Source: Minisyncoccia bacterium (GTDB lineage: Bacteria > Patescibacteriota > Minisyncoccia > Phycocordibacterales > UBA9973). Taken from it: a DNA stretch of 64,000 bases. The position numbers were made by a program, and so were the translations under genes. Shown piece after piece: positions 31,050 to 62,442 of this stretch. The notes under the pieces were generated by a model, which saw only the letters and a list, made by a program, of their open reading frames with translations, was not told the DNA's origin and did not search any database. How positions within the stretch are numbered: the stretch's first letter is position 1; the number at the start of each line of letters is the position of its first letter. The stretch is taken from assembly GCA_041737125.1 (NCBI GenBank), contig JBGSSJ010000010.1, forward strand, positions 22,354 to 86,353. The letters are read 5' to 3'.

Positions 31050-32792
31050 TTAAACTACTTCTTGTTGATAACACTTTTCACAGTAGATTATCTCAGGTCG
31101 TTCGGGTGCATAACTTGTCTCAAACTCTACTTTGCACTTCCCTTCGTGATTATGCCCTTCTTTTTCACATATACACACTCTGTGCCAGAGCTTGAGAGGA
31201 TTTCTCTTATTAAAACGAGCTTTGTGTCTGCACTGATAACAACGTCTAGGTATGGGGATATTAAATCTTCTATAGAAAGTTAGTTCATCTTTCGTTATTC
31301 TGTATGCTTTTGTGCATCGCTCTGACCCAAACACAGAATCACAAGCTATTACTTCATTTATAAAATCATCATTTATATCAATAATAGAATCTGGAATATC
31401 TTTATTATTGATAGTTATATTATAATTTTTACCTTCTATCCCTCTATATAAATAACCTTGGTTAATTGTTTCTTCTTCAGATAATGGATAGAAATCATTG
31501 GCAATTGTCTCATTATAAGCAAATGGAGAAAGTTCTATTGGGAAAAACTCACCATATCTATACACCCTACCCTTTTTATCTACATAAGGCATATCTATCA
31601 TGTGTTGCTTGATCTTAGGCAATAGTTCAAAATATTCTTCCTTTGTATATTGCCTATTTAAAATACAATACGATTTATTACGCAAGCCAATACAACCAAA
31701 AACATTTTTGCAGCTATAGCAGTTAAAAGAATAGTCTACCTCTGTAGAGGAATAAACAACACTAGAAAATCTACAGAAAGAACCACCCACCCCAGAGTCG
31801 TTCATTTCAAAACCATTTTCAAGCATCCCACTAGCATTGCAGTAATAACAATCAAATATATTTTTAGCTCCCCAAAAAAGATGTTTGCAGTTCTTTACAT
31901 TATCAAGTGCATCAAAAACATTATAACTATCTACTACATTACTTAAATTATCTCCTGTCACATTATTACATTTTATAATAGTAGCGTATCTATGGATTGT
32001 ATTTAATTTAAGTATTTCAAACTGTTTCTTTAACTCCTCTACTGTGGTATAGCTTCCTAGATTATATTGTGTTAATTTTTCAAAATACTCTTCTTTTGAA
32101 TACTGTACGTTTTCAAATACATAACTTTTATTTCTTAAATTTGATGACATGAAGCAGTTAACACATCCATGGCAATCATATAAGAAATATGAATCTGTTG
32201 AATTATTTGTCTTTTCACAGTAAAAAAGGTTAGAAGAATTATTACAATATACATCTTCATAACAAAATTCACCCTTTTGGACTATATATAAATCGAGAGA
32301 ATCTTTTATTTCTAAAATAGAATCAGAGTACATTGTTCTTTCATTTTTCCAACATGCGGAAATAAGATAGCAATCATAGCTTTCCTCAGCCACATTACAG
32401 TATTCACTGTTTACTGCTTTTGAATTAGAAAGTGCTTGAAATGGTATAGCATCTCTAAGTTCTTTCCATTGAATAAAAAAGTCTCTAGAGAAGTCAAAAT
32501 CTTTCCCATAATCAAATGGATCCCATGCATCACTCCACCAATACTTCTGATCCACAATATTCATCTTTACGTCTGGGTGATAAATTGAGATTATTTCATC
32601 CCCAGTTACAGAATCTTTCCTTTTATATAAGGAGTGTGTATTCCTCCATGCAAAACGACGCTGGTGTGAACACCCAGGACAAAATGTCGGTGGTGGAACT
32701 TGCATCTTTTCATAGAAAGAAAAATCCTCAGGTTCAATAGTGAAGTTCTCTTTGCAGTTCTGACATGTTCTTTTTTCTTCTTGGTATTCCAT
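31050..32792 (-). CDS. Cysteine-rich zinc-ribbon-capped repeat protein, paralog A1 (uncharacterised family)
   Basis: 580 aa, ~45 Cys. N-terminus MEYQEEKRTCQNCKENFTIEPEDFSFYEKMQVPPPTFCPGCSHQRR (CxxC-x22-CxxC), two internal C-x-[NG]-C-x-N-C...LRNK.Y...N.QY.KEEY modules, C-terminus ...YAPERPEIIYCEKCYQQEVV. Confidence 0.85.
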   Translation of the reverse strand: MEYQEEKRTCQNCKENFTIEPEDFSFYEKMQVPPPTFCPGCSHQRRFAWRNTHSLYKRKDSVTGDEIISIYHPDVKMNIVDQKYWWSDAWDPFDYGKDFDFSRDFFIQWKELRDAIPFQALSNSKAVNSEYCNVAEESYDCYLISACWKNERTMYSDSILEIKDSLDLYIVQKGEFCYEDVYCNNSSNLFYCEKTNNSTDSYFLYDCHGCVNCFMSSNLRNKSYVFENVQYSKEEYFEKLTQYNLGSYTTVEELKKQFEILKLNTIHRYATIIKCNNVTGDNLSNVVDSYNVFDALDNVKNCKHLFWGAKNIFDCYYCNASGMLENGFEMNDSGVGGSFCRFSSVVYSSTEVDYSFNCYSCKNVFGCIGLRNKSYCILNRQYTKEEYFELLPKIKQHMIDMPYVDKKGRVYRYGEFFPIELSPFAYNETIANDFYPLSEEETINQGYLYRGIEGKNYNITINNKDIPDSIIDINDDFINEVIACDSVFGSERCTKAYRITKDELTFYRRFNIPIPRRCYQCRHKARFNKRNPLKLWHRVCICEKEGHNHEGKCKVEFETSYAPERPEIIYCEKCYQQEVV

Positions 32793-32816
32793 TCGTAATT
32801 ATTAATTCGTAATTTT

Positions 32817-34535
32817 TTAAATCACTTCTTGTTGATAACACTTCTCACAATATACTATCTCGGGTCTTTCGGGTGCAAAGCTCGTTTCGAATTCATTATT
32901 ACACCCTTCTTTCATACACGAACGGTGCCAAAGCTTCATAGGATTTTTAAGATTTATCCTTTCTATATATCTACAATTATGACACATATCAGGGGCTGGT
33001 ATGCCTAGCGACTTATAAATATTAAATTCATCGGGTAGCACTCGGAACGCAGTCGTACAATTATGGTTACACTCACCCCTATGCTTGCATTCGATAATAC
33101 CATGGATAATCTCTTCATCAGCAAAAGAATTATTATGTAAATCCTCTGCTGTAATAGTTATGCTGTATGACTTTTCTTCTTTATCTTTCCATGAATAACC
33201 AGAAGCAAGTGCAGACTCTTTATCGAGTGGATAATAATCTTGTAGAGGCGTCTCGTTGTAAGAAAATATAGAAAGCTCTGAGGGAAAGAAATCGCCATAC
33301 TTATAAACCCTACCTATCTTATCGACATACGGTAACTCATTCATATGACTTTTGATCTTTTCTATCATTTTAGAATATTCTTCCTTTTCGTATTGTTTAT
33401 TTAGAATGCAATACTTTTTATTACGTAATGAAATGGAACCGAAAGAATCACTCGTGGTATAGCAATTATCACAATACCATAGGTCGAAACAACTAGAATA
33501 ACAGAAGCATGAGAGATATATTTTGCTTGATTCTATCGGTGACATCGTATGGTAGCAAAGCTCACTAGATGGGTAACTATGAGAAAGGTCCATAGAATCT
33601 TTCGCTCCATTGCAGACGAAACCATACTTTGTATTCTCAGAATCAACAGCAGCATAGACTTCTTTGCAATTCCTAGAGTTTATAATACTATCCCCTGTGC
33701 AATTATCTGTGTTCTCTAGAATTGCGTATTTATTTATAGTTTTCTTTTTTAGATTTTCAAAAATTTCTTTACATGCATACAAACCACTAAAAGTAGATAA
33801 TTGTAAATCTTCTTTTATTTTAAAATAATCTTCCCTTGTGTATTGCTCATTGAAGATACAGTAATTCTTATTCCGGAGATTGGTACACCCGATGCAGTTC
33901 GAGCAGTTACGACAATTATATAAAAAGCTTGAGTCCAAACAACTATCACAATTCTGAGAGAAGCTAACCTTATAACAAGATTCACAATCAACAAGCATAT
34001 ATGACCACTCGGAGAACCTGGTCATCGAGCAAGATGAGCAATTCTTGTCCCTTGTACATTGTGGCCCCATGAAATAGCAATCTTCTGACTCTCCAATACT
34101 AAATGATAGATAAATATTTTTCACATTGGCTGCATGATTAGTGTACTCACTATTCACCTTATTGGAACCTATGAGATTAATGCGTGGAGCCTTGCTCGAT
34201 AACTCTTTCCACTGTTCGAAGAATGGACGAGTGAAATCATAATCCTGTCCATAATCCGCAGGATCCCAGCCATCGCCATAGAAGCAGTCTTTGCAGAAAA
34301 CTTTAAAAGTATTCCCTGTATGATACATGGAAATTATATTTGTATTACAAAGGTCGCAATTCCTTTTATACAAAGACATGTTGTTCCGGAAAGCGTACCT
34401 TAGCTTAAACCTACACTCCGGACAAAATGTCGGAGCAGGAACCTTTATCTTTTCATAGAAAGAAAAGTCCTCAGGTTCTATAGTGAAGTATATTTTACAG
34501 TTCTGACATATTTTGTTTTCCGTTTGATTAGTCAT
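32817..34535 (-). CDS. Cysteine-rich zinc-ribbon-capped repeat protein, paralog A2
   Basis: 572 aa; MTNQTENKICQNCKIYFTIEPEDFSFYEKIKVPAPTFCPECR ... CRNCSNCIGCTNLRNKNYCIFNEQYTREDY ... YAPERPEIVYCEKCYQQEVI. Confidence 0.85.
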   Translation of the reverse strand: MTNQTENKICQNCKIYFTIEPEDFSFYEKIKVPAPTFCPECRFKLRYAFRNNMSLYKRNCDLCNTNIISMYHTGNTFKVFCKDCFYGDGWDPADYGQDYDFTRPFFEQWKELSSKAPRINLIGSNKVNSEYTNHAANVKNIYLSFSIGESEDCYFMGPQCTRDKNCSSCSMTRFSEWSYMLVDCESCYKVSFSQNCDSCLDSSFLYNCRNCSNCIGCTNLRNKNYCIFNEQYTREDYFKIKEDLQLSTFSGLYACKEIFENLKKKTINKYAILENTDNCTGDSIINSRNCKEVYAAVDSENTKYGFVCNGAKDSMDLSHSYPSSELCYHTMSPIESSKIYLSCFCYSSCFDLWYCDNCYTTSDSFGSISLRNKKYCILNKQYEKEEYSKMIEKIKSHMNELPYVDKIGRVYKYGDFFPSELSIFSYNETPLQDYYPLDKESALASGYSWKDKEEKSYSITITAEDLHNNSFADEEIIHGIIECKHRGECNHNCTTAFRVLPDEFNIYKSLGIPAPDMCHNCRYIERINLKNPMKLWHRSCMKEGCNNEFETSFAPERPEIVYCEKCYQQEVI

Positions 34536-34572
34536 TTTTTATCTACTTTACTTAACTAAAGTCAACAATAAT

Positions 34573-36321
34573 CTATATAACTTCTTGTTGATAACACTTC
34601 TCACAATATACTATCTCAGACCTTTCTGGTGCATAAGTAGTCTCGAATTCTACTTGGCACTTTCCTTCATGATTATGACCTTCTTTATCACACATACAAA
34701 TACGATGCCAGAGCTTCATAGGATTCCTTTGCCTCAAACGAAGTTCGTGGCGACAATTAGGACAGTACTTGGGTAATGACAAATTCATCTGTTTGTAAAA
34801 AGCGAGCTCTTCTGGAAGAATTCTAAACGCAGTAGTACAAGTACTAGAAATATGTGCACACTCAATTATTTCACCTAGAATTGAATTGTCTACTTTTTTA
34901 ATATCTCTCTCTATATCTTTATTAAATATTGTAATTTTATATTCTTTATTTTCTTTTTCACGCCAGAGAAATCCTTCAGCCAATGCTTCTTCTTTATCTA
35001 TTGGAAAGATTTCTTGAACAATTGATTCGTTATAATTAAAAGGAGAAAATTCTATAGGAAAAAATTCTCCGTACTTATACTCAAGACCACGAGGAGTTAT
35101 GTACGGCATGGCGTTCATATGCTCAATAATCTTATTTCTTAATTTTATATATTCATCTTTTGAATATTGTTTATTAAATATACAATATTCTTTATTCCGA
35201 AGACCAATACAACCAAAAAGATTATTCGAACCGACACAATAATGGCAATACTCAAGAAAACGACCTTCTGGGAAACAACCATTTGAAAAAAGTACACGAT
35301 TAAGATTTGTACCGCTTTTAATTGTTTCATATACTTCGATCGCATTCTCACCATAGAATGAGTAATCATAACAATCTTTTACTGGACCAATGTAGCAAAG
35401 AAAACAATTCTTGGAATCCTCAACTCCATCTGATTGATAGATTGTCTTTGAATTTTTTGAATGGAGGACATAATCTCCAGTCACTTCAATATTTTGCTTA
35501 CCATGCATATATTTTTGAGGAAATTGAAGTGAGCTTTCTTTAATTTTTTGTTTTACGGCTTCTATGTCATTTAAGGCTTCAAGTAGAAGCTCATTTATCT
35601 TTTGCTCATAATCTTCTTTTAAATATTGTTCATTGTAAATACAATATTGTTTCTTTCGTAAATTAGTACAACCAAAACAATTCGAACAACCAACTAAATT
35701 TTTAGAAAAATAGATATCATATGAATCTTCGCTATCTATAGAGTAGAAAGCTCGGTAGCACTTCCTTATATTCACACATTCAAAGCAATGCTCACTTTTA
35801 TGTGTCATATAACAATCGAAACAATTTTTAATAAAAGAAACAGTATCGCAATAGTATGAATCTTCAACGACGTCTGCGTAGAAAACTAAATACGCATTCT
35901 TTAGTCGCCCTGCTCCATTACAATAAGGACTATTTATCATAGTGGGCTCTTCTACTCCGAGCGCCATCCAGGGTACTGTCTGAAGCATTTCTTTCATTTG
36001 TTCAAAAATTGGCCTGGAGAAATCAACATCTCGAGCATACATAAATGCATCCCACTCGTCACTCCACCAACATTTATTACAATAAACAGTAATTTGCTCG
36101 TCTGGATGGTACATAGTAAAAGCCTCTTTATTGCACAATCCACAAACTCGCTTATAGAGAGCACGTTTATTGTAGTGATAGAGCCGTCTCTTTAATCTAC
36201 ACTCCGGGCAAAATGTCGGTGGAGGAACTTTTATCTTTTCATAGAAAGAAAAGTCCTCAGGCTCAATAGTGAAGTTCTCTTTACAGTTCTGACACGCTCT
36301 ATTTTCTGTTTGATATTCCAT
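34573..36321 (-). CDS. Cysteine-rich zinc-ribbon-capped repeat protein, paralog A3
   Basis: 582 aa; MEYQTENRACQNCKENFTIEPEDFSFYEKIKVPPPTFCPECR ... GCSNCFGCTNLRKKQYCIYNEQYLKEDY ... YAPERSEIVYCEKCYQQEVI. Confidence 0.85.
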   Translation of the reverse strand: MEYQTENRACQNCKENFTIEPEDFSFYEKIKVPPPTFCPECRLKRRLYHYNKRALYKRVCGLCNKEAFTMYHPDEQITVYCNKCWWSDEWDAFMYARDVDFSRPIFEQMKEMLQTVPWMALGVEEPTMINSPYCNGAGRLKNAYLVFYADVVEDSYYCDTVSFIKNCFDCYMTHKSEHCFECVNIRKCYRAFYSIDSEDSYDIYFSKNLVGCSNCFGCTNLRKKQYCIYNEQYLKEDYEQKINELLLEALNDIEAVKQKIKESSLQFPQKYMHGKQNIEVTGDYVLHSKNSKTIYQSDGVEDSKNCFLCYIGPVKDCYDYSFYGENAIEVYETIKSGTNLNRVLFSNGCFPEGRFLEYCHYCVGSNNLFGCIGLRNKEYCIFNKQYSKDEYIKLRNKIIEHMNAMPYITPRGLEYKYGEFFPIEFSPFNYNESIVQEIFPIDKEEALAEGFLWREKENKEYKITIFNKDIERDIKKVDNSILGEIIECAHISSTCTTAFRILPEELAFYKQMNLSLPKYCPNCRHELRLRQRNPMKLWHRICMCDKEGHNHEGKCQVEFETTYAPERSEIVYCEKCYQQEVI

Positions 36322-36327
36322 TCTTTA

Positions 36328-36756
36328 TTACTTCAACTTACCATAATGATAACCGTCGTCTTCCTCTATCTCATCATTATGTTTCTTCTCTTCTGCTGAA
36401 ATATAGCCTTTTTTATTACTTAAAGTGTTCTCTACCCAAAATGTATAAGTTGGGTTCATCATGGCTGTATCGAGTCTTGTAATCATAGGAGCAGAATATG
36501 AGTGAATATGGCTTATAAATTTAATAAGCTCATCACTACGTACCTTTTGGGTGGTTAGCATAAGCATATATTGCTCTGTATCTTGGATAACACCATGCCA
36601 TGGATAAACTGAGCCTATAACCCAATAATCTGCAGATATTGCAAGCTTTTTCTCTATAACTGCAAGACCAATAGCCCGTGCCTCATCAGCACTTTCACAA
36701 GTAGTATAGACGAAAACAATTTCTTTTGAGCCTGTTGTTACTTCTTCTACTATCAT
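36328..36756 (-). CDS. cutA: CutA1 divalent-cation tolerance protein
   Basis: IVFVYTTCESADEARAIGLAVIEKKLAISADYWVIGSVYPWHGVIQDTEQYMLMLTTQ matches the CutA fold signature (VYTT..EA..IA..L.EKLAAC). Confidence 0.7.
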   Translation of the reverse strand: MIVEEVTTGSKEIVFVYTTCESADEARAIGLAVIEKKLAISADYWVIGSVYPWHGVIQDTEQYMLMLTTQKVRSDELIKFISHIHSYSAPMITRLDTAMMNPTYTFWVENTLSNKKGYISAEEKKHNDEIEEDDGYHYGKLK

Positions 36757-36798
36757 ACTAATATGATAGTAATTATTATTTATATTAGCAAGAGGGAT

Positions 36799-37344: not shown

Positions 37345-37345
37345 A

Positions 37346-37930
37346 TTATTGTGGAAGTGTGTAGCCTATTTGCTGTGCTAGGAATTCTAGTGATGTCTCA
37401 CCTGTGACACTAGAGCCTGATTCGAATTTCCATACTCCATCTTTCACCACAGGGTCGGTTAGACTTTTCACAGAGAAGGGATATCCTGGGAACCTCCAAG
37501 TCTTATAGAATTCTGATCCTATTTGAGCACATATTGGGTCTTCACCCTCTTTACCTGGCTTGATAGAACAAGTAACAGGTTCTGTACTTGAAGCTATGGT
37601 TATGCCGTTTGCGAATTTCCACGTAGGGAAGCTCTCAATCTTCTCATCTACGCATATTTGGACTGGCGATCTATTTGGATTTGAACATTCTACATATGGT
37701 AAATACTTCTTTGAACTACCGAATAATGCCTTCTCAGCTATGCAATGCGGACACCAGAATGCTCCATAGAATACTGCACCATTACTCTTAAGTGCCTTTG
37801 CAAAATCATCGTATTTACCAGGCTTCTGATTCTTATTCATAAAGACCCCAAGTCCAATAACGAATAATATAATAATAACTATAAATAAGATAAATTTAGT
37901 TTTCATAATGTGATTATACCAAAAAGCCAA
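37346..37930 (-). CDS. Membrane-anchored thioredoxin-fold thiol:disulfide oxidoreductase (DsbA / BdbD-like, CPHC active site)
   Basis: N-terminal TM then AVFYGAFWCPHCIAEK; CPHC is identical to the E. coli DsbA active site. Alternative start at MKTKFILF (37906). Confidence 0.75.
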   Translation of the reverse strand: MAFWYNHIMKTKFILFIVIIILFVIGLGVFMNKNQKPGKYDDFAKALKSNGAVFYGAFWCPHCIAEKALFGSSKKYLPYVECSNPNRSPVQICVDEKIESFPTWKFANGITIASSTEPVTCSIKPGKEGEDPICAQIGSEFYKTWRFPGYPFSVKSLTDPVVKDGVWKFESGSSVTGETSLEFLAQQIGYTLPQ

Positions 37931-39956
37931 GCTTTAACCAAAGTGACACAAATGGTGAAAGTATCAGGTTCCATATGACCTTTAGTATTTCTAATAATTT
38001 ATTAGTATCAGGTACGACATCACCTGCATTTGCTGTTAATATATTAATATCTTGTTCTTCCATTTCTTCTGGTTGTGTTTCTACTATAGCGACTTTATTT
38101 TCTATAATTTTCTTTATTGACTTTGGTGCTACTATTTCTTCTACTTCTGGTTTTTCAACTTCTGTAGCTAGAACAATAATGTCTTTCATTTCTTCCTTTA
38201 TGGGTTCTACTTTATCACTGCCTCCTTCCTCTTCTTTTTCTTCTCCTTCTTTGTCGAAGGATGACATTATGTCATTCCAAGATAGATGTAGTGCTCCCGG
38301 GATAGCATAAGATGTTGCCCAAATACGGTTATTTATATTATCTGTAACTTGTTCCATGCCTCCATCTGTCTGCTGGGCGAGAGCCATATAACTATCCCCT
38401 TTTGCGACTTCAGCATTCAATGAATAATTGGCAGATAGTGCTTGAAGTGCCCAGCTTGTACCATATGAGTTACCGAAGGATCCATCACTACCCTGCTTCC
38501 CCACTAGATAATTCTCTGCTTTTGTTATAGCATCTTCTAATCCGGACATATTTTTAAAATTCCGTAATGCCATAATCCCTGCTGAAGTAGTATCCATATT
38601 CTCCCAAGACCCATCATTTGATTGCTTAGAAATTAAATAAGAAATACTTTTCTCTATAATTTCATCATTTTTACTGTAGCCTGCATTTTTAAGAACTATT
38701 AATGCAAAAATGTCATCGTTGATAATAGATGTATCTCCAAACTGATTCCCATCAAAAGATGAAATTATTTTCTCTATGTAATTTATACTTGTTCCGTTGT
38801 AAGGATTAATATCAAGAGCCATCATCGCCATAGCATGACGTTCATTATCAGTAAGCATAGTAGAATTCATCGGGTTATTCTTCATATACTCTGCCACTCT
38901 CTCTTTTGCACTATTTGCCCTGTTACCGGCACTAGATAATGCTATCGCCACCCAATCTGTATAAAGCGCGTCGCCGAACGATCCATCAGTATTCTGTTTA
39001 CTAATTAAATACGAAAGTGCGTTATCTACGGAGAAAGTTTTCGTAGTTGATCCACCACCTCCACCAGAAGAAGGTGCACTTACAGTGACTTCATACGAAG
39101 GAAAATAATAATCTTCTGATATGCCGACGTTATAAGTACCCGCTTCTACAAATGTGAGAGTTGCCTCCCCGTTATCATTCACGGGGTGAGTAGACACTAT
39201 TATAGGATTCCATGCATTATCCGGATTTGTTTTTGTAATACCTACACTTACACCAGTACGAGTAATCCAAGTATTATCCGTATAATTATATGATTGTGCT
39301 TTTGCTATTATGCTCTCGCTTATATTAATAGTATTACTGCTAAGCTCAATACGATATGGGTTACCGAAATAAAGATTAATAAATTCCCCACCAGTAAGCA
39401 TTGTCGTATCGATACTAGTCCATGGACTAAAGCCCCCAACTACATACTGCCAGCTATCACAAAGTGGTTCCATTTCCCCAACAGTAATACACTTTAAATA
39501 AAAAGAGGAGAAAGAATCGTAATATTGTAAATTCGATATTGTAAATGCATCACTTGCTTGATCTAAATTATATAGAACTCCGAGCACACTCCTTGCATTT
39601 ACTTGATGTAGATTACCATTACTATCCACTATCTCTATCATTCCCTCCTCTGGTAAATCTATATCACCACTATATATTACAGTATCACCACTGCGCATAA
39701 AAAAACTTTCCTTTAAGGTTATCTCTTCTTCCTCTATAATTTCCTCCTCGTCTTCTTCTATAATTTCTTCTATTTCATCTTCAACAACTTCTTCTTCTGG
39801 AGTAACTATTTCATCTTGGGCATCTTCTTCTGTTATAGGTTCACTGACAATTACCATTTGCTCCTCTACAGCAAATTCTTCAGCAGAAATATTAAAGGTG
39901 GGTACGAATATTATAAACGTTAGAACTATTGATAATAAGACTTTGTACTTTTTCAT
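37914..39956 (-). CDS. Secreted protein with acidic linker, DUF4430-like segment and prenyltransferase / squalene-oxidase (alpha/alpha-toroid) repeats; putative transcobalamin-like alpha-domain protein
   Basis: Signal peptide MKKYKVLLSIVLTFIIFVPTFNISA; EEEIIEEEE acidic tract; repeats LISKQNTDGSFGD / LISKQSNDGSWEN / LVGKQGSDGSFGN (QxxDGSW/F-G toroid repeats); C-terminal hydrophobic tail. Confidence 0.6.
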   Translation of the reverse strand: MKKYKVLLSIVLTFIIFVPTFNISAEEFAVEEQMVIVSEPITEEDAQDEIVTPEEEVVEDEIEEIIEEDEEEIIEEEEITLKESFFMRSGDTVIYSGDIDLPEEGMIEIVDSNGNLHQVNARSVLGVLYNLDQASDAFTISNLQYYDSFSSFYLKCITVGEMEPLCDSWQYVVGGFSPWTSIDTTMLTGGEFINLYFGNPYRIELSSNTINISESIIAKAQSYNYTDNTWITRTGVSVGITKTNPDNAWNPIIVSTHPVNDNGEATLTFVEAGTYNVGISEDYYFPSYEVTVSAPSSGGGGGSTTKTFSVDNALSYLISKQNTDGSFGDALYTDWVAIALSSAGNRANSAKERVAEYMKNNPMNSTMLTDNERHAMAMMALDINPYNGTSINYIEKIISSFDGNQFGDTSIINDDIFALIVLKNAGYSKNDEIIEKSISYLISKQSNDGSWENMDTTSAGIMALRNFKNMSGLEDAITKAENYLVGKQGSDGSFGNSYGTSWALQALSANYSLNAEVAKGDSYMALAQQTDGGMEQVTDNINNRIWATSYAIPGALHLSWNDIMSSFDKEGEEKEEEGGSDKVEPIKEEMKDIIVLATEVEKPEVEEIVAPKSIKKIIENKVAIVETQPEEMEEQDINILTANAGDVVPDTNKLLEILKVIWNLILSPFVSLWLKLGFLV

Positions 39957-39966
39957 AGATTTATTA

Positions 39967-40503
39967 TTAATTCATAAGACCTTCCCTCTTCCATTCGACT
40001 ACATCTTTATCTTTTAATACATACTGCGATACACCAATTTCAGCCTTTTTATCATTCACATAATAAATCCAATAAGCGCCCGACTCTCCTTTTACTCCAT
40101 TGATACTATCGACAAAGTAACCCATTCCTCCAAATTCTCTCCCTTCAAATGTAAAATTTTTACTCACATCACTCTTAACATTGTTCATTAAATCATAAAC
40201 GCTTTTATCTTTCTCAATATTTGTTTCGTAAATTTTGCCATCAACAATCAAACTTGCTTTTATTTCTTCGTTCACATCTTTATTTATTTCTTGCTTTTTC
40301 TCTACTTGTGGGCTCGGAGATATATTTTCATTCTTTATTGCAATATTTTCTTTTTCTAATTCAGGAGATGATATTACGTTCTCTTTATTATTAACTTCCG
40401 GAGCAAGAACCACTTTATCTTTCTTTACATACGGATAAACATAAAAAGCAATCAAGATAAGCAAGGAAACTATTATTATAATCTTATTTTTGATGTTTTT
40501 CAT
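39967..40503 (-). CDS. Membrane-anchored DUF4430-like (transcobalamin beta-domain-like) protein
   Basis: TM anchor, then C-terminus ...GAYWIYYVNDKKAEIGVSQYVLKDKDVVEWK typical of DUF4430. Start set at MKNIKNK (40503), because the upstream part of the ORF-finder ORF is occupied by a cobalamin riboswitch with terminator. Confidence 0.55.
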   Translation of the reverse strand: MKNIKNKIIIIVSLLILIAFYVYPYVKKDKVVLAPEVNNKENVISSPELEKENIAIKNENISPSPQVEKKQEINKDVNEEIKASLIVDGKIYETNIEKDKSVYDLMNNVKSDVSKNFTFEGREFGGMGYFVDSINGVKGESGAYWIYYVNDKKAEIGVSQYVLKDKDVVEWKREGLMN

Positions 40504-40506
40504 AAT

Positions 40507-40680
40507 AAAAAAACTGCCTTGGTGGGCAGAAGTATGTAGATGTAAATACATCTCTCCTGCTCGGGATACATCTATTGTATTAAGATCGGACTCGTCCTTA
40601 AACATTTTCATGTCAGGCTTTACCGTTGCGGCACAGTGGAGGGATTTACCTCACTTCCAAATACTATAGGTTAAATTTTA
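40507..40680 (-). promoter_or_regulatory. Cobalamin (B12) riboswitch with intrinsic-terminator expression platform
   Basis: Minus-strand sequence UUUGGAAGUGAGGUAAAUCCCUCCACUGUGCCGCAACGGUAAAG matches the cobalamin riboswitch core (GGGAA..GGUGAAAAUCC...GCCACUG..CCGCAACGGUAA). A B12-box-like GAGCAGGAGAGA lies downstream, and the terminator CUGCC-CACCAA-GGCAG + UUUUUUU ends 4 nt before the ATG of the DUF4430 gene. Confidence 0.6.
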
Positions 40681-40687
40681 AAATACA

Positions 40688-41221
40688 CTAAACTCTTCTA
40701 AGCTTCGAGACCAGGACTGGAATACTTAACTTGCTCTCTTTCCTTTCTTTTGCTAACCACATTTCTATCACTGGTGAGAGAACTATAGCAAATGCCACAT
40801 TACCTAGCAAGTGAAGAGCAGTGAATGGTATCTGACCTATGAGTGCACCCATGAATGATTGTCCGAAGAATAATGGCCCTAGGGTGAGTCCTGTAAATGC
40901 ATCATATAGAATAGTCGCTATGATTGCATACTTCACGTAGTTGGCGCGTCCTTTCCTATTCTTAAAGAAAAAGCTTGCACCTATTCCCACCATTCCATAA
41001 GCAAGTGCTGTGACAAGAGTCCAGACGCCGATACCTGCGGTTACAGAATCATATATGACAATACTCCCTGCTCCAAAGATGAAAGCCAAAAGAGGGCCAT
41101 AAGCTTTCCCGAAAGGCATAGACACAGCCATAATAGGCTCTATATTTGGAGCCCGGAATGGCAAAAGGCGCATAAGAAGCACGGCTACAAAGGCAATTGT
41201 GTATTTAACAGATTTTCTCAT
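40688..41221 (-). CDS. Small polytopic membrane protein, ECF-transporter S-component-like (putative cobalamin / corrinoid uptake)
   Basis: 177 aa, ~6 TM, Arg/Lys-rich N-terminus and no Cys; size and topology resemble ECF S components. Assignment is from context (B12 riboswitch, NrdJ), not from motifs. Confidence 0.35.
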   Translation of the reverse strand: MRKSVKYTIAFVAVLLMRLLPFRAPNIEPIMAVSMPFGKAYGPLLAFIFGAGSIVIYDSVTAGIGVWTLVTALAYGMVGIGASFFFKNRKGRANYVKYAIIATILYDAFTGLTLGPLFFGQSFMGALIGQIPFTALHLLGNVAFAIVLSPVIEMWLAKERKESKLSIPVLVSKLRRV

Positions 41222-41267
41222 TCGTATTTTTTAATTTGTAATTATTAATTCGTAATTCTTAATTGTC

Positions 41268-43726: not shown

Positions 43727-43760
43727 AAGCAAAATAGCTTTCAATTGAAAGCTATTTTGA
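43727..43760. terminator. Perfect 28-nt palindromic hairpin (AAAATAGCTTTCAATTGAAAGCTATTTT) between cysteine-rich cluster B and nrdJ
   Basis: 12-bp stem with 4-nt loop; weak U-run, so termination efficiency is uncertain. Confidence 0.45.
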
Positions 43761-43825
43761 TGTACAAATTCATAAATTTTTCTATAAATTGAAAAGAAAA
43801 GAAAATCAAAAATTTTTACTAGATT

Positions 43826-45541
43826 TTAGAGAACTTCCTGCTGGTAACAACTCTCACAGTATACCCTTTCCGGCCTATCTGGGGCATATGTAGTCTCGAA
43901 TTCTCTCCCACAACCATTACTACATAGTCTTTTATATAGTTTCATTGGATTTCGGTAGACTAAACGCTGGTAATGACGACAGTTCGGACAGTAGTGAGGT
44001 AATGGTAGTGAATTTTGCCTATAGAACAGAAGCTCTTCCTTTGTAAGCTTGAAAGCATTGGTACATTGATATTTATAATCACCTTTATTCGGGCATTCTA
44101 GGATATCATTTAGTATGTCATCTGTTACATTTTCTATACTATTAGGTAAAGTTTCAAAATTTTTTGTCGGAACGTAATTTCTTACTTCTGGCTCTTTCCA
44201 ATTAAGACCCAAGTCTATTATCTGTTCTTTTGTTTTAGGAAAGTAATCATGAGCCATAGTTTCATTATATCCAAATGGGCACATAAAATACGGGAAAAAG
44301 TCTCCATATGAAAATACTCTTCCCATGGAATCTTTCAATGGTAAATCCACCATATGCTTTCTCAGTAATGGTGATATTTTTAAATATTCTTCTTTAGAAT
44401 ATTGTTTATTTAAAATACAGTATTTAGCATTTTTCAAACCAACACAACCGAAACAGTCGGAGCAATTACGACAGTTCAAAGAGTGTTCCATGTTTGTAGA
44501 ATTAAAACAAACTACACATCCTATTTGATTACTTGAATCCTGACTACCAGAAATATTTTCATATTGCAATTCTCCATTTAAAACCCAACAACAATCTTTC
44601 AAATCTTTCGTATTAACAACTCTAAATGTATTAGAAATATTTTCAGATTTAAAAACATCAAAAGAATTATTTATGTCTTTTGAATTATTAATATGATCGC
44701 CTTTTACATTTACTGAATTCAAATTTTTTGCAAACTTAAATATTGCTTTTTCTTTAATTAAAGAAAATTCATTCCGTGCATTATTAAAACCAGAAAAAGT
44801 ATTCAACTTTAACTCTTTTACTTTTTCTAAATATTCGTCCTTACTTAATTGTTTATTTTTAAAGAAATAAGATTTATTTCTGAGGTTTGTTGATAAACAA
44901 CAGTTTGAACAGTTTGAACAATCGTACAGGAAATAAGAATCTATATTTTTATTTGAATCAATCACGAAATGACAATTATAATTTTCTAAACAATCTATAT
45001 TCCAAGAACATCTATCAATATTTCCACAATAAAGACAATCAAGTGAATTCTTCGAGTTATCAACATTTTCAGAGAATGAAATATCTTCTGAATTTACCAA
45101 AGAAAATGCTAAATATATATTCTTAGAATTAGCTACCGAATTAGAATAATCACAATTTATAACTGTACCACCAAGCTTATACTGAAAAATACGAGGTTGA
45201 ATATAGAATAATTCATTTATCTGATTAAATATCGGAATACTCAAATCAATTTCTTTTTGATACATAAATGGATCCCAATTATCCCCCATCCAACACTCTC
45301 CACACATTACAGGAGCTCCATCCTCTTTATAAACTGATAATAATGACTTAGAGCAAAGACTACAAGTACGTTTATAAAACGACCTATGATTTCTCCAGCA
45401 CATTCTCCTTATCATCCTGCACTCTGGGCAAAACGTAGGCGGTGGAACTTTAATTTTTTCATAGAAAGAAAAGTCTTCTAATTCAATAATGAAGTTCTCT
45501 TTGCAATTTTGACACGTTCGGTTTTCTACTTGATTTTCCAT
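43826..45541 (-). CDS. Cysteine-rich zinc-ribbon-capped repeat protein, paralog B1
   Basis: 571 aa; MENQVENRTCQNCKENFIIELEDFSFYEKIKVPPPTFCPECR ... CSNCSNCCLSTNLRNKSYFFKNKQLSKDEY ... YAPDRPERVYCESCYQQEVL. Confidence 0.85.
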   Translation of the reverse strand: MENQVENRTCQNCKENFIIELEDFSFYEKIKVPPPTFCPECRMIRRMCWRNHRSFYKRTCSLCSKSLLSVYKEDGAPVMCGECWMGDNWDPFMYQKEIDLSIPIFNQINELFYIQPRIFQYKLGGTVINCDYSNSVANSKNIYLAFSLVNSEDISFSENVDNSKNSLDCLYCGNIDRCSWNIDCLENYNCHFVIDSNKNIDSYFLYDCSNCSNCCLSTNLRNKSYFFKNKQLSKDEYLEKVKELKLNTFSGFNNARNEFSLIKEKAIFKFAKNLNSVNVKGDHINNSKDINNSFDVFKSENISNTFRVVNTKDLKDCCWVLNGELQYENISGSQDSSNQIGCVVCFNSTNMEHSLNCRNCSDCFGCVGLKNAKYCILNKQYSKEEYLKISPLLRKHMVDLPLKDSMGRVFSYGDFFPYFMCPFGYNETMAHDYFPKTKEQIIDLGLNWKEPEVRNYVPTKNFETLPNSIENVTDDILNDILECPNKGDYKYQCTNAFKLTKEELLFYRQNSLPLPHYCPNCRHYQRLVYRNPMKLYKRLCSNGCGREFETTYAPDRPERVYCESCYQQEVL

Positions 45542-45572
45542 TTGTAATTATTAATTCGTAATTTATAATTTT

Positions 45573-47288
45573 CTACAGTACTTCTTTCTGATAACATTTC
45601 TCGCAATAAACTCTCTCTTCTCTATCTGGGGCATATGTAGTCTGAAATTCTCTCCCACAACCATTACTACATAGTCTTTTATACAATTTCATCGGGTTTC
45701 TGTACGCTAGACGCTGGTAATGGCGACAATTTGGGCAGTAATGAGGTAGAGGCAAGCTCTTTTGTTTATAGAATTGCAACTCAGTAGGCATGATACGGAA
45801 AGCAGTGGTGCATTGTGTCAGCTGGTTACCATTATTTGGACAGGATATTGTTTGATTTAGTATATCTTCATTAACATCCGTAATATTATCTGACAAATTA
45901 TCACTATCAATTGTAATTTTATAATCTTTATTTTCTTTTTCTTTCCATGGATAACCAAGTTCTGTAGCTTTCTCTAAACTTATTGGGAAGTAATCTAAAT
46001 TTACAGTTTCATTATATCCAAAAGGAGAGAACTCAAATGGGTAGAATTCTCCATAGACATAAACTCTACCCTTACTATCTATATAAGGATTATCAATCAT
46101 GAATTTTCTTAATTTAGAAACAAGGGCCTCATATTCTTCTTTTTCATATTGTTTATTCAAGATACAATATTTAGCATTTTTTAAACCAATACAACCAAAG
46201 CAGTCGGAGCAATTCTTACAGTACAAGGAGTACTCCATATTTTTAGAAGACAAACAAAGTATTGAACCAATTTGATTATATGAGTTACTGCTTGCTGACA
46301 ATGATTCGTAAGCAATTTCACCAGTAAGTATATATGAGCAATCGAATATATCATTTGATTTTATTATTCTAGTTGAATAACGAATATTCTCTGCAGTATT
46401 TGATATGTCATATGAATGAAAAACATCTTTAGAATTAAAAATAAAATCTCCCGTAACATTCTGGCTTGATACTATGTTTGCATATTTATGAATTGCATCT
46501 TTATAAATAAAATCAAATTCTTCTTTAGTTTTATTGAAACCGGAGTATGTTTCGAGTTTTAGTTCACCAAGAGCCTTTTGATATTCTTCTTTAGTTAGTT
46601 TGATATTCTTGAATACATACTGCTGGTTCCTTAAACTAGAAGACAGGCAACAGTTCTGACAATTCACACAATCATAAAGGAAAGATGAATCAATACAAGA
46701 ACTGGAAGATAATATAAAGTGTGAGTTGTAATTCTTATCAGATAGCATGTTCCATGTGCATTGATCGAGATCATAGCTTGCAAAGGAGTCTATCGTATTA
46801 CGAGATCTATCTATGCTTTCAGAATACATTATGTCTTCACAATCTATGACTGAAAAACATAAATATACATTTTTACAATTAACTACTGAGTTACCATAAT
46901 CGCTATTAATAACATTCCCAATCCTATACTGGTATATGCGAGGCTGCTTCCTGAATAATGAATACAATTGTGAGAAGAAACTTGTAGTCCAATCTATTTC
47001 CATTCCATGCTCGAATTGATCCCAGCCATCTCCGTTATAACACTCTATACAATAGACAGGTACCCCGTCGTCTTTATACATTGATATTAAATTTTTACTA
47101 CAAAGACCACAACTTCTTTTGTATAAAGATCTATTATTCCTCCAAATCATTCTCCTTATCATCCTACACTCCGGGCAAAAGGTAGGTGGTGGAACCTTTA
47201 TCTTTTCATAGAAAGAAAAATCTTCTGGTTGTATAGTAAAACTCCCTTTGCAATTCTGACATATTCGGTTTTCCGTTTGATTTTCCAT
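45573..47288 (-). CDS. Cysteine-rich zinc-ribbon-capped repeat protein, paralog B2
   Basis: Start set at MENQTENRICQNCKGSFTIQPEDFSFYEKIKVPPPTFCPECR (47288); the ORF-finder start at 47372 would overlap B3 by 74 nt. Ends YAPDREERVYCEKCYQKEVL. Confidence 0.85.
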   Translation of the reverse strand: MENQTENRICQNCKGSFTIQPEDFSFYEKIKVPPPTFCPECRMIRRMIWRNNRSLYKRSCGLCSKNLISMYKDDGVPVYCIECYNGDGWDQFEHGMEIDWTTSFFSQLYSLFRKQPRIYQYRIGNVINSDYGNSVVNCKNVYLCFSVIDCEDIMYSESIDRSRNTIDSFASYDLDQCTWNMLSDKNYNSHFILSSSSCIDSSFLYDCVNCQNCCLSSSLRNQQYVFKNIKLTKEEYQKALGELKLETYSGFNKTKEEFDFIYKDAIHKYANIVSSQNVTGDFIFNSKDVFHSYDISNTAENIRYSTRIIKSNDIFDCSYILTGEIAYESLSASSNSYNQIGSILCLSSKNMEYSLYCKNCSDCFGCIGLKNAKYCILNKQYEKEEYEALVSKLRKFMIDNPYIDSKGRVYVYGEFYPFEFSPFGYNETVNLDYFPISLEKATELGYPWKEKENKDYKITIDSDNLSDNITDVNEDILNQTISCPNNGNQLTQCTTAFRIMPTELQFYKQKSLPLPHYCPNCRHYQRLAYRNPMKLYKRLCSNGCGREFQTTYAPDREERVYCEKCYQKEVL

Positions 47289-47298
47289 TCGTAATTTT

Positions 47299-49020
47299 CT
47301 ATAGGACTTCTTGCTGATAACAGTGTTCACAGTATACCCTCTCCGGCCTGTCTGGAACATAACTTGTTTCAAATTTATTATTACACCCTTCTTTCATACA
47401 ATTCCTCTGCCAAAGTTTAGCAGGTAAAATTTTAGCAAATCGTTCGTAGTGTCTGCAGTTTGAACATTTGGTAGGGAGTGGAATATTGTTTTTCTTATAA
47501 AAATCAAATTCATCTTTTGTAATTTTAAAGGCGATCGTGCACCTATGGTCGCACTTTCCTTCATGTTCACAACCTAGGACCTCTTTTAATATAGATTCAT
47601 CCACATCATTTATATGATCAGGTATACTATTTGAATTTATTGTTATGTGGAAATCTTTACTTTCGTGGTCTTTCCATTTGTAACCCTTTCTAATTGCTTC
47701 CTCTTTAGTTATCGGCATTAAATCATAAGCTGGTGTTTCGTTATAAGCTAAAGCAGAAATTTCAATAGGGAAAAATTCACCATACTTATATTCGCATCCC
47801 GCTTTATCATAATAAGGATCTGTGTTCATTTGATTTACTATATCAGCCCGAATTTTATTAAAATCTTCTTTTGAGTAAACTTTGTTTAAAATAGAATATT
47901 CTTTATTACGTAAACCAATGCATCCAAAAATATTGGAACAAGAAATACAAGAATCAGTATATTCTGCATTCTGAACATTACCCATGGCAGCATAAGAAAA
48001 TTTCACATTATAATCATCTTTTGCTCCAGTACTATATTCATACATGAGTTCTGATTTGCCAGCATAATCTGTGTCCATATTATCTTTAAATAAGAAAGCT
48101 CTGTAACAATTTTTCCCATTTTCTGCGTCATGAATATCAAAACAATTTTTACAATTATTCACGTTGGACAAATTATTGCCCGTTGAGTCCACTGATCTGA
48201 AAATATTTGCAAATCTATGTATGGCATTTTGTTTCATTCCTTCAAATTCCTCTATAATTCCTTTTCGAAAGTTCCTACTACCAAAATCAAACTTCTTCAG
48301 TTCTTTCAAATAATCTTCTTTTGTGTATTGAACATTAAAAATACAATATTCTTTGTTGCGTAAATTTGTGCATAAAATACAATTTGAACAATTTGCGCAA
48401 TCAAATAAAAAATATGAGTCAATGCAATTTCGTGACAAAACTAAATGCTGAGAATTATAGTTCTTCTCCCCTTCTACAACTTCATAACATCTATCACAAT
48501 CCACTAAATTATATGAATCAAATATATTAAAACAAGAATCTATGCCTTTTGAATAGAAAACATTTTCTGAACCTAATACTACTGATACTGATAGATAAAC
48601 ATTTTTACACTCTCCAACCATATTCGAATAATCTGAATCCGTCACGTTTCTTTGAAATAAGGCTAGGTGTGGAACTTTACTCTGTAACTCTTTAAATTGA
48701 TGAAAGAATGATTTACTAAAATCATAATCTACACCATGAGTAGAACCGTCCCACTTATCAGAATACCAACATTCTCTACAATATACAGGAAAAGGTGAAT
48801 CTGCCCCATACATTGCAATAATATTACTATTACATAGATCACAGACTCTTTTATATAAACCTCTTTCATTTCGCCACACCATTCGTCTAATACGCCTGCA
48901 ATCCGGGCAGAATGTAGGTGGTGGAACTTTTATCTTCTCATAGAAAGAAAAGTCTTCTGGTTCTATAGTGAAGTCCCTTTTACAATTCTGGCATGTTCGG
49001 TTTTCTGTTTGATGTTCCAT
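47299..49020 (-). CDS. Cysteine-rich zinc-ribbon-capped repeat protein, paralog B3
   Basis: Start set at MEHQTENRTCQNCKRDFTIEPEDFSFYEKIKVPPPTFCPDCR (49020); ends YVPDRPERVYCEHCYQQEVL. Confidence 0.85.
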   Translation of the reverse strand: MEHQTENRTCQNCKRDFTIEPEDFSFYEKIKVPPPTFCPDCRRIRRMVWRNERGLYKRVCDLCNSNIIAMYGADSPFPVYCRECWYSDKWDGSTHGVDYDFSKSFFHQFKELQSKVPHLALFQRNVTDSDYSNMVGECKNVYLSVSVVLGSENVFYSKGIDSCFNIFDSYNLVDCDRCYEVVEGEKNYNSQHLVLSRNCIDSYFLFDCANCSNCILCTNLRNKEYCIFNVQYTKEDYLKELKKFDFGSRNFRKGIIEEFEGMKQNAIHRFANIFRSVDSTGNNLSNVNNCKNCFDIHDAENGKNCYRAFLFKDNMDTDYAGKSELMYEYSTGAKDDYNVKFSYAAMGNVQNAEYTDSCISCSNIFGCIGLRNKEYSILNKVYSKEDFNKIRADIVNQMNTDPYYDKAGCEYKYGEFFPIEISALAYNETPAYDLMPITKEEAIRKGYKWKDHESKDFHITINSNSIPDHINDVDESILKEVLGCEHEGKCDHRCTIAFKITKDEFDFYKKNNIPLPTKCSNCRHYERFAKILPAKLWQRNCMKEGCNNKFETSYVPDRPERVYCEHCYQQEVL

Positions 49021-49031
49021 TCGTAATTGTT

Positions 49032-50702
49032 TTATATAACCTGTTGCTGATAACACTTCTCGCAATAAACTATTTCTTTCCTTTCTGGTGAATAATTAGT
49101 CTTTATATCTTTACTACAGAAATCACATTTCCTGTCCCAGAATTTGTATGGTCCACGACGACGAACTCGATCTCTATGACGACAGTAGAAGCAGGCTCTT
49201 GGTATTGGTAAATGCATCTTCTTGTAGAAGAGTAATTCCTGCTCTGTGATTTTATAATTCCTCTCGCAATTTATGCAAGCGAGTATTTCCTTTGTAATAC
49301 TATCTGGCACATCAGCAATATGATCTGGGATATCTTCTGTTTTTAATGTCTCCTTCCCTTTTGTAACCTGTACATCATCCTCCCATCTGTAACCTTGGGC
49401 TACGGCTTCCTCTTTTGTCAAAGGAAAGTTATCTTGAGCTATTGTTTCATTATATGCAAACGGTGCAATAGACGGAGGCATCATAAGGCCATATAAATTT
49501 TGGGATTTTAATTCCTCTACAATATGCTCTTTTAGTCTTTCATATTCTTCTTTTAAGTATTCTTTGTTCAGAATTGCATATTTGGCATTCTTGATAGCAT
49601 CACAACCTATAGTGCTAGTATTATACTTAACATCAAATCCATAAACTACGTCCTGGGAATTCTCAGCCCAAAATGAACCGATTATATTACTAGAGTATCC
49701 GGTGGCGACGACTTCAAGTAAATTTTCTCCATTAGTACCATAACCTATTGTACCTAAAGAATCTTTTATAACTTTAGATGAAAATAGATATCTACAATTC
49801 TCTGCTTTTGAAACTTCAAATGAATCTTTAACTGATTTACATTCATAAAGATAGTCACCCTCTGAGTCCACCGCCTTTATATTATTATTTTCTCTATGAG
49901 GGTGTTGTAAGCAGAAATATTCAAAAATTTTAATCATTTCTTCTTTTTTAGAATAACTACCAGTATAATCTTCTAACCTATTGGAATATTCCTCGGGAGT
50001 AAGTTGCTCGTTGAACCAACAATTACTTTTATTCCTCAAATTCACACAACCGAAACAATTAGTGAGTCCACTACCATTTAGAATGAAGTGTGAATCAACA
50101 CAACTTATAATATTTTTACTATAAGTGACACCTGATGACTTCTGAATATTTACACTATCGTAACAATTTTCTATGTCGACACCGAAATAAATATCAGAAG
50201 AAAATTTACCATTTTTTATCCCTCGAGAATACAGCAGTTCCTCTGCTGGACTTGTATTGAAAACTAGGTAACAATTTTTACAACCTCCTGCCATATTTAC
50301 ATATTCGCTATTTATATTCTGACCTTCAGCTGAAGATATGCCCAAACAATTCTTTGGTACTTTTCTTAATAGCTCCCCCATTTGCTCGACAAAAGGTTTA
50401 TTAGGGTCGTAGTCAATAGCATAATCTTTAGCATCCCATTTATCAGAATAGAAACATTCATAACAAAAAACTACATAGGGAGATTTTGGGTTATAAATAG
50501 ATATTATATTTTTCTGGCACATATCACACTTGCGCCCCGAATAAAGAGTCATTTCATTCCTCCACATTGCCCTAATTTTAAACCTGCAGTCGGGGCACAC
50601 ATGTGGCGCTGGAACTTTCATCTTCTCATAGAAAGAGAAGTCATCGGCTTCGATAATGAAATTAATCTTGCAGTTCTGGCAGCTCCTTGTCTCCAAATTC
50701 AT
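49032..50702 (-). CDS. Cysteine-rich zinc-ribbon-capped repeat protein, paralog B4 (most divergent)
   Basis: 556 aa; MNLETRSCQNCKINFIIEADDFSFYEKMKVPAPHVCPDCR ... YSPERKEIVYCEKCYQQQVI. Confidence 0.85.
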   Translation of the reverse strand: MNLETRSCQNCKINFIIEADDFSFYEKMKVPAPHVCPDCRFKIRAMWRNEMTLYSGRKCDMCQKNIISIYNPKSPYVVFCYECFYSDKWDAKDYAIDYDPNKPFVEQMGELLRKVPKNCLGISSAEGQNINSEYVNMAGGCKNCYLVFNTSPAEELLYSRGIKNGKFSSDIYFGVDIENCYDSVNIQKSSGVTYSKNIISCVDSHFILNGSGLTNCFGCVNLRNKSNCWFNEQLTPEEYSNRLEDYTGSYSKKEEMIKIFEYFCLQHPHRENNNIKAVDSEGDYLYECKSVKDSFEVSKAENCRYLFSSKVIKDSLGTIGYGTNGENLLEVVATGYSSNIIGSFWAENSQDVVYGFDVKYNTSTIGCDAIKNAKYAILNKEYLKEEYERLKEHIVEELKSQNLYGLMMPPSIAPFAYNETIAQDNFPLTKEEAVAQGYRWEDDVQVTKGKETLKTEDIPDHIADVPDSITKEILACINCERNYKITEQELLFYKKMHLPIPRACFYCRHRDRVRRRGPYKFWDRKCDFCSKDIKTNYSPERKEIVYCEKCYQQQVI

Positions 50703-62416: not shown

Positions 62417-62442
62417 GTACAATCATATTATATCATTTCTAT

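Follow-up and report, generated by a model that had tools for sequence, protein, structure and literature searches.

Two tandem arrays of an unnamed cysteine-rich protein family in a Minisyncoccia genome, with putative zinc domains at both ends and predicted beta-helix modules between them

Seven paralogues in two arrays

The window analyzed here is the whole 64-kb stretch (64,000 nucleotides, nt) of contig JBGSSJ010000010.1 from a Minisyncoccia bacterium, and it carries seven genes for large, cysteine-rich proteins of a single family. A first-pass annotation of the same DNA had placed seven same-strand genes here, encoding proteins of 556–582 amino acids (aa); these positions and lengths were confirmed, and all seven lie on the minus strand in the list of open reading frames (ORFs). 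The A array consists of A1 (31050–32792; 580 aa, 31 Cys), which is without the second N-terminal Cys4 site and lies 114 nt upstream of pilB, A2 (32817–34535; 572 aa, 41 Cys), which scores 763 against the hidden Markov model (HMM) of the family, and A3 (34573–36321; 582 aa, 36 Cys). A3 is nearest to the family consensus, is identical to NCBI protein P0001, and is the reference for all residue numbering. The B array consists of B1 (43826–45541; 571 aa, 37 Cys), B2 (45573–47288; 571 aa from the conserved ATG, 32 Cys), B3 (47299–49020; 573 aa from the conserved ATG, 34 Cys), and B4 (49032–50702; 556 aa, 28 Cys), the most divergent of the seven. The open frame of B2 extends upstream to a TTG at 47372, and its start was picked by homology of the N-terminus, MENQTENR.

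Together the seven genes take up 12 kb (19%) of the window. Within the arrays they are separated by 24 and 37 nt (A) and by 31, 10, and 11 nt (B), which reproduces the range of 10–37 nt given earlier, and this tight spacing makes array operons plausible. Promoter and terminator scans were no better than shuffled controls. Pairwise identity between the paralogues is 38–46%, except for B1 and B2, which pair at 59%. Cysteine makes up 5.0–7.2% of residues, compared with 1.8% for the window's long ORFs outside the family; the count per protein is 28–41 Cys and not the 40–50 first reported. The full-length proteins are acidic (pI 5.3–6.3), with mildly basic ends (pI ~7.5–9) and a middle of pI ~5–5.5. 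No transmembrane segment or signal-like stretch was found in any of the seven (maximum 19-residue Kyte–Doolittle value ~1.0), in keeping with the cytoplasmic look ascribed to them at first. The GC content of the family genes is 0.33, against 0.39 in their neighbours; the deficit sits mostly at the first codon position (0.38 vs 0.48), where it reflects amino-acid composition, and partly at the third (0.28 vs 0.34).

Domain architecture and predicted fold

The layout runs from an N-terminal zinc domain through a linker, a module M1, helices, a second module M2, and a Cys-free region X to a C-terminal zinc domain. That this amounts to putative zinc domains at both ends, two beta-helices with 12-residue coils, and a Cys-free region X is a description in which we have high confidence. 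In A3, where all parts lie on the minus strand, the N-terminal double zinc domain covers aa 1–95 (36037–36321), with site 1 formed by C10, C13, C38, and C41 and site 2 by C60, C63, C81, and C84. M1 (aa 128–232; 35626–35940) contains about eight 12-residue coils and ends in the cap GCSNCFGCxNLRxKxYCIxNxQYxKE[ED]Y. M2 (aa 279–385; 35167–35487) is its homologue, and region X (aa 386–483; 34873–35166) carries the conserved motifs Y-x-YGEFFP and YNE[TS]. The C-terminal double zinc domain (aa 484–582; 34576–34872) contains site 3 (C488, C495, C520, C523) and site 4 (C542, C544 or C555, C573, C576).

Several details of the initial description change with this map. The first zinc site has the spacing C-x2-C-x24-C-x2-C instead of C-x2-C-x22-C-x2-C. 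The N-terminal motif said to be common to all is matched literally by three of the seven proteins and not by the rest. The second CxxC...CxxC pair, likewise assigned to every paralogue, has been lost from A1, and the patterns given for the internal modules and the C-terminus hold as consensus approximations, not literally. The central proposal of two internal modules is borne out, since hhalign aligns M1 (A3 aa ~128–245) with M2 (~279–397) as true homologues at a probability of 99.9% and E 3e-31. The N-terminal zinc domain (aa 12–85) also aligns with the C-terminal one (aa 494–577; probability 99.5%, E 5e-23), and a ~90-aa two-finger unit with its own F-x-I-x4-FY-x-K-x2-P-x-P motif is found at both protein ends. 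The termini are conserved above the middles, as was first noticed; identity among the paralogues is 0.70 in the N-terminal part, 0.58 in the C-terminal part, and 0.34 between them.

AlphaFold2 modelled full-length A3 from a 63-sequence alignment with a predicted local distance difference test score (pLDDT) of 83 and a predicted template modelling score (pTM) of 0.86. Helices 39–48 and 521–529 of the model start at the second CxxC of the fingers. For M1 alone (118 sequences), pLDDT is 92–97 over the repeat and short strands recur every 6 residues, with the pattern EE--EEEE--EE in the 12-residue register. The consensus row of 12 residues is C-[YF]-x-[CS]-x-x-[C]-x-x-[CS]-[KE]-[ND], and the modules are predicted to be right-handed beta-helices in which every third position faces the core and holds Cys, Ser, or a small hydrophobic side chain. 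Region X reaches a pLDDT of 87–97 in the AlphaFold2 model; among 63 sequences Y417, G418, P422, Y430, and N431 are invariant and E432 is at least 90% conserved. It has no match in PDB or Pfam.

Among the solved structures searched, the closest match to the modelled helix is the antifreeze protein of Tenebrio molitor (PDB 1EZG), also a right-handed beta-helix with 12-residue coils. At 11% sequence identity it would be a fold analogue, not a relative. The family lacks the T-C-T ice-binding ladder (0 TCT and 0–1 TxT in the middles of all seven) and the signal peptide, none of its top covarying pairs of helix Cys lie at i+6, and its module is embedded twice in a 580-aa bacterial protein that is probably cytoplasmic. 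The zinc domains resemble the zf_Tbcl (PF13451) and zf_Tbcl_2 (PF23477/TIGR04272, CxxC-x17-CxxC) fingers, which likewise have two CxxC knuckles with the second at a helix start, and the second and fourth fingers of the family share the x17 spacing of zf_Tbcl_2. The proteins of the window differ from these models in scoring below the curated cut-offs and in fusing two fingers into one ~90-aa unit. Borderline C-terminal profile matches to CRP1 and MLP (E 0.0015–0.009) hint at a likeness to the LIM domain, whose two contiguous fingers have the form C-x2-C-x16-23-H-x2-C and C-x2-C-x16-21-C-x2-C/H/D; C520/C523 covary with C488/C495 and not with a His-x2-Cys. The separate parts, treble-clef fingers and a right-handed beta-helix, are known fold types. 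The libraries and literature searched contain no description of their combination, of a probably cytoplasmic 12-residue helix with a Cys/Ser ladder, or of the family.

Two roles of the cysteines

Across 359 non-redundant family members the cysteines fall into two groups with different behaviour. Those assigned to the ends are present or absent as sets: C63, C81, and C84 come and go together (phi 0.97–0.98), and C495, C520, and C523 covary (phi 0.82–0.89). The beta-helix Cys columns are nearly independent (phi ≤0.40). Lost zinc ligands give way to assorted polar residues; in the helices the usual substitute for Cys is Ser, followed by Val, Leu, Ile, or Ala. The autocorrelation of Cys in M1 is positive at multiples of three and negative elsewhere (permutation p = 0.0002), and M2 shows the same three-residue periodicity more weakly. 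About 16 Cys would therefore belong to four structural, putatively zinc-binding Cys4 sites, one of them present in only ~55–60% of members. The earlier suggestion of zinc-binding ends is supported by this all-or-none loss of tetrads, by the sub-threshold treble-clef matches, and by the helices that begin at the second CxxC. The remaining 11–24 Cys are predicted to line the narrow core of the 12-residue beta-helix, which would admit small residues only. Four zinc sites and a core ladder of Cys and Ser together give the cysteine richness a structural explanation.

A different use of the same ladder would be the binding of Fe–S clusters or of a chain of Zn or Cu ions, so that the protein served in redox chemistry, electron transfer, storage, or metal buffering. 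The CxxCxxCxxC runs at aa 179–188 and 209–218 invite this reading, as do five highly conserved helix cysteines (C212, C215, C218, C371, and C380, at 85–96%) and position 227, which is Cys, His, or Tyr. CutA1, a recurrent neighbour, belongs to a family of divalent-ion tolerance, and P-type ATPases are encoded in the window. Most ladder Cys, however, occur in only 30–70% of members, with Ser, Val, Leu, or Ala in their place, and the ladder columns reach a phi of at most 0.40 in the same proteins whose zinc tetrads reach 0.82–0.98. Their spacing is CxxCxxCxxC and not the CxxCxxCxxxCP of cluster-binding proteins, and no Fer4-type or other cluster-binding profile of Pfam or NCBIfam matches even at E ≤1. 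Compared with 4Fe–4S ferredoxins, the family has Ser or Leu in place of Cys in many members and gives no profile match. We consider a metal-ladder role unlikely, and the Fe–S or redox function first listed as a candidate found no support, since most of the middle Cys behave as interchangeable core residues and not as metal ligands. A more exotic variant would hold a chain of metal ions inside the 12-residue beta-helix, of which we know no example.

A large family of Patescibacteria

No paralogue has an above-threshold match in Pfam or NCBIfam, where weak treble-clef finger matches occur at the ends only. The best finger scores are 16.1 bits for PF13451 (cut-off 24), 20.6 for PF23477 (cut-off 27), and 19.7 for TIGR04272 (cut-off 36), and a few family members in other genomes carry precomputed matches of the zf_Tbcl/zf_Tbcl_2 type. 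The PADLOC defence models did not match any of the four paralogues tested; the ATPases that neighbour the family match PADLOC mad8 and HerA weakly. Among PDB sequence profiles there were only the borderline C-terminal LIM-finger matches, with none covering the whole protein. As no match in Pfam, NCBIfam, PADLOC, or PDB, by sequence or by fold, spans the protein, the original label of an uncharacterized family stands.

More than 4,900 proteins of 550–600 aa were significant in a homology search; nearly all lack a Pfam domain, and all those with a name are "hypothetical" proteins from Paceibacterota, Nomurabacteria, Jorgensenbacteria, or the Patescibacteria group. A profile search of 1.84 billion cluster representatives (clusters at 50% identity) found 5,357 clusters at E ≤1e-3 and 2,297 at E ≤1e-30, almost always as end-to-end matches. 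In species-representative genomes, 586 stretches were confirmed, in metagenome-assembled genomes (MAGs) of Patescibacteria. For the comparison of loci 78 were kept, from Parcubacteria-group MAGs and a few MAGs with other or generic labels; the closest of them is a Minisyncoccia MAG with a 78% A3 orthologue. No viral relatives were found in IMG/VR viral contigs or GenBank phages. The family is thus very large and unnamed, and every named source is Patescibacteria (Paceibacteria / Parcubacteria group). The literature searched contains no description of it or of the PF13451, PF23477, and TIGR04272 fingers; a survey of protein families in the candidate phyla radiation (CPR) lists unnamed hypothetical families enriched in Parcubacteria, none identifiable as the cysteine-ladder family.

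Evolution of the paralogues and arrays

Tandem arrangement is the rule in this family. The family HMM, run over all fetched loci, finds 1–9 same-strand copies per ±10 kb, and two loci have at least nine in a row. A1, A3, B3, and B4 are 55–78% identical to relatives in other genomes (A1 55%; B3 64%, locus L064; B4 66%, locus L019; A3 78%), against 46% or less to paralogues at home. Being closer to genes elsewhere than to their own neighbours, these paralogues must be old, and the three-plus-four arrangement pointed out at first is not a recent, lineage-specific expansion; only the B1/B2 duplicate looks recent. Next to the 78% A3 orthologue in its genome stand copies that are orthologues of neither A1 nor A2, so the composition of arrays turns over.

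Regional conservation reverses between orthologues and paralogues. In A3 orthologues (67–78% identical overall), M1 and M2 are the best-conserved part at 0.79–0.91 and the zinc domains come second at 0.62–0.78; between paralogues M1 and M2 fall to 0.22–0.43 and the zinc domains to 0.49–0.65. B3 and its 64% orthologue follow the same trend as A3, with the helices most conserved, and the other paralogues are intermediate. Subfunctionalized paralogues that keep one function in common at their termini, and have helix surfaces of their own, would be expected to show this pattern; a diversifying family would show the reverse. Gene conversion as the cause of the similar termini was considered and rejected: among identical codons, third-position identity is 0.60 in the N-terminal part, 0.58 in the middle, and 0.51 in the C-terminal part. 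Since synonymous sites are alike in all regions, the conserved termini point to selection on the protein.

The possibility that the genes form a fast-evolving contingency or antigenic family, which the first-pass annotation had raised, or that the arrays are an assembly artefact, has to be set against these data. The middles of paralogues do diverge, copy number differs between related genomes, and a few copies elsewhere carry an in-frame TAA or TAG. Orthologous middles are nevertheless the best-conserved region, the paralogues are older than the divergence of the genomes, and synonymous sites show no trace of gene conversion. An artefact is not indicated either, because the copies are just 39–59% identical and tandem arrays recur in dozens of independent assemblies. 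Either explanation strikes us as extremely improbable.

Copies with a single in-frame stop were seen at L012 19578–21314, L017 1742–3532, L019 8206–9993, and L081 498–2336. Selenocysteine does not account for these split copies, as their stops are TAA or TAG. They are either pseudogenes or sequencing errors, and they hint that copies are lost now and then.

Genomic neighbourhood

Read along the minus strand, B4-B3-B2-B1 are followed by genes for class II ribonucleotide reductase (RNR), an ECF-S-like protein, a DUF4430 protein, a 680-aa protein, a thioredoxin-like protein, DsbB, and CutA1; then come A3-A2-A1, PilB, PilC, and pilin-like genes, with ComEC and RecJ further on. The CutA1-family gene (36328–36756, minus; Pfam CutA1, E 2e-20) lies 6 nt upstream of A3. 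Directly downstream of A1 is the PilB-type (T2SSE) ATPase (29187–30935, minus; Pfam T2SSE, E 7e-122), and the order CutA, family, PilB, PilC is also present in locus L054. CutA1 adjoins the family in nine loci, the present window included, and in five of the nine it stands between an ATPase and the array.

The commonest neighbour across loci is a P-loop ATPase with TrwB_AAD_bind, DUF87, and TraG-D_C domains, found in 29 of 79 loci. Its nearest NCBIfam models are VirD4-like, TraD, and CedD DNA translocases, all below cut-off. Of the 109 arrays that do not run into the end of a contig, it lies directly upstream of 20, upstream with CutA1 in between in five, and directly downstream of 10, so that it flanks ~30% of arrays. 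Two forms occur, one of ~500 aa and one of ~700–830 aa with a strong zf_Tbcl_2 finger (E 1e-14). A larger domain common to the family and the ATPase was looked for and discarded, as there is a single weak finger match only (E 4e-4). The parallel with VirD4/TraD-type systems is therefore the adjacency of such ATPases and, in the long form, the same finger type; it ends at the sub-cut-off ATPase matches and at the lack of any other type IV secretion system (T4SS) parts in the loci examined. To our knowledge, no adaptor or substrate of VirD4 or TraD has the architecture of this family.

Such a neighbourhood could also belong to proteins that leave the cell. The paralogues would then be disulfide-laddered beta-helices, recruited by VirD4-like ATPases or pilus machinery, oxidized by DsbB and the thioredoxin-like protein, and acting outside, for example on the host. 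In favour of this, a secreted beta-helix filled with disulfides tops the fold matches, adhesins and tailspikes come next, the C-terminus is strongly conserved, the DsbB and thioredoxin-like genes lie between the two arrays, and VirD4/TraD-like ATPases adjoin many arrays. Yet the proteins have neither a signal peptide nor a transmembrane segment, they carry at both ends zinc fingers typical of reducing compartments, and Cys at i and i+6 lack the joint conservation expected of disulfide partners. T4SS channel genes were not seen in the loci examined. DsbB adjoins the family only in 2–3 related loci syntenic with the window, where the adjacent pilin genes explain it better, and the tie to disulfide-forming and B12 genes drawn at first thus reduces to local synteny of 2–3 related genomes. 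Export seems doubtful on balance.

The type IV pilus genes, ComEC, RecJ, and the DNA-translocase-like ATPases also allow a reading directed at nucleic acids, in which basic zinc domains would bind DNA or RNA, acidic helices would present DNA-like surfaces, and the proteins would regulate DNA-handling enzymes during uptake. Pentapeptide-repeat proteins offer a precedent for DNA-like surfaces. The mildly basic ends and acidic middle would suit this role, and one homologue is labelled "Zn ribbon nucleic-acid-binding protein" in its source. That label is automatic, however, the whole proteins are acidic at pI 5.3–6.3, and no nucleic-acid-binding profile in Pfam or NCBIfam matches. We judge this function to be quite improbable.

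The stretch between the arrays (37914–43580) is likely a B12-related block. It holds the class II (B12-dependent) RNR with an ATP-cone, the ECF-S-like membrane protein, and the DUF4430 protein; the 680-aa secreted protein has an acidic repeat region and weak squalene-cyclase/prenyltransferase-like and cobalamin-binding-like repeats. In other Paceibacteria (L011, L012, L023, L025, L034, L066, L069, L074, L076) a recurrent order leads from SecD/F through a protein with sigma-70 region 4 and HARE-HTH, a 463-aa membrane protein, a ~175-aa protein, and a short VirD4/TraD-like ATPase, sometimes followed by CutA1, to the family copies. The 463-aa and ~175-aa proteins have no Pfam or NCBIfam match. 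In L001 (Pacebacteria; 15678–17480) a family copy lies between ftsW and murG in a cell-division and cell-wall cluster; in all, two arrays have FtsW as their neighbour on the upstream side. Elsewhere in the window, the ORFs at 24048–25535 (minus, 495 aa) and 60347–62422 (minus, 691 aa) gave no Pfam or NCBIfam match, and Rfam detected only two tRNAs.

Intergenic elements

The spaces around the genes contain an AT-rich, genome-specific element built of AATTACGA units, an octamer present in 16 copies where 3.1 would be expected. The octamer stands directly before the ATG of A1, B2, and B3 (32791–32814, 47289–47296, 49021–49028); B1 is preceded by a variant of it and the ECF-S gene by a near-match. 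In a 45-nt version the element recurs behind the stop codons of A1 and of the RNR gene, and also at the B2/B1 junction (31013–31057, 41231–41275, 45537–45581). As a family-wide signal before gene starts AATTACGA was dismissed, being absent upstream of family genes in other genomes. A Shine–Dalgarno-like core within 16 nt of the start was found in 21 of 181 family genes, and the upstream regions are A/T-rich.

The gap between A1 and pilB is filled by a 45-nt imperfect inverted repeat of AATTACGA units (30941–31057; 76% complementary, 27-nt spacer), which could be a regulatory hairpin or operator; a TATAAT-like box follows it a few bases before the pilB start. At 43730–43759, ~67 nt past the B1 stop, there is a perfect 13-bp hairpin, CAAAATAGCTTTC-AATT-GAAAGCTATTTTG, which has no U-tract and is a possible terminator of the B-array transcript. 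The RNR gene is preceded by a promoter-like site (43657–43630).

Proposed function

We tentatively propose, at somewhat less than even confidence for the statement as a whole, that the proteins are zinc-stabilized cytoplasmic recognition scaffolds or adaptors. The cytoplasm is suggested by zinc fingers in proteins that have no export signal. The terminal zinc domains would have a docking function common to the paralogues, since these ends are conserved from one to the next, mildly basic, LIM-like, and of the same finger type as the neighbouring ATPase. The beta-helix surfaces, conserved within orthologue lines and differing between paralogues, would recognize a different partner or ligand in each. 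The common partner might be a membrane-associated translocation ATPase of DNA or protein transport; here the argument comes from gene neighbourhood only, VirD4/TraD-like elsewhere and PilB in this window. Cytoplasmic beta-helix proteins that act through their surfaces include pentapeptide-repeat proteins such as MfpA/Qnr, bactofilins, and the beta-helix domain of CAP/tubulin cofactor C, and the analogy is functional only: their coils have 20 or ~18 residues, compared with 12 in the family, and there is no similarity in sequence or profile. Unlike hexapeptide and pentapeptide repeat proteins, the family has no 6- or 5-residue repeat with a matching Pfam profile.

Several observations weigh against the scaffold or adaptor proposal. 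No characterized homologue emerged from the Pfam, NCBIfam, PADLOC, or PDB searches. The 64-kb window itself has no VirD4/TraD-like ATPase, and the adjacency of such ATPases elsewhere could partly be inherited synteny of related genomes. The 85–96% conservation of helix residues C212, C215, C218, C371, and C380 and the alternation of position 227 between Cys (45%), Tyr (22%), and His (22%) together allow for a helix-cap metal site, and a real metal site may exist at the caps.

Significance

This analysis maps the domains of an apparently large, still-unnamed family and accounts for its many cysteines in structural terms; at 50% identity the family comprises 5,357 clusters or more, and neither Pfam nor NCBIfam has a model for it. 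Genomes of Patescibacteria are usually smaller than ~1 Mb, and on that assumption 7–10 copies would take up roughly 1–2% of coding capacity. The association with VirD4/TraD-like ATPases and PilB could bear on how CPR/Patescibacteria exchange material with their hosts. In its most specific form, which we regard as rather unlikely, the proposal is that these are Patescibacteria-specific adaptors whose zinc ends dock hexameric ATPases (VirD4/TraD-like, PilB) and whose helix faces pick the cargo or target. If this were true, the adaptor array would be a specificity layer for the traffic of DNA or protein between episymbionts and their hosts.

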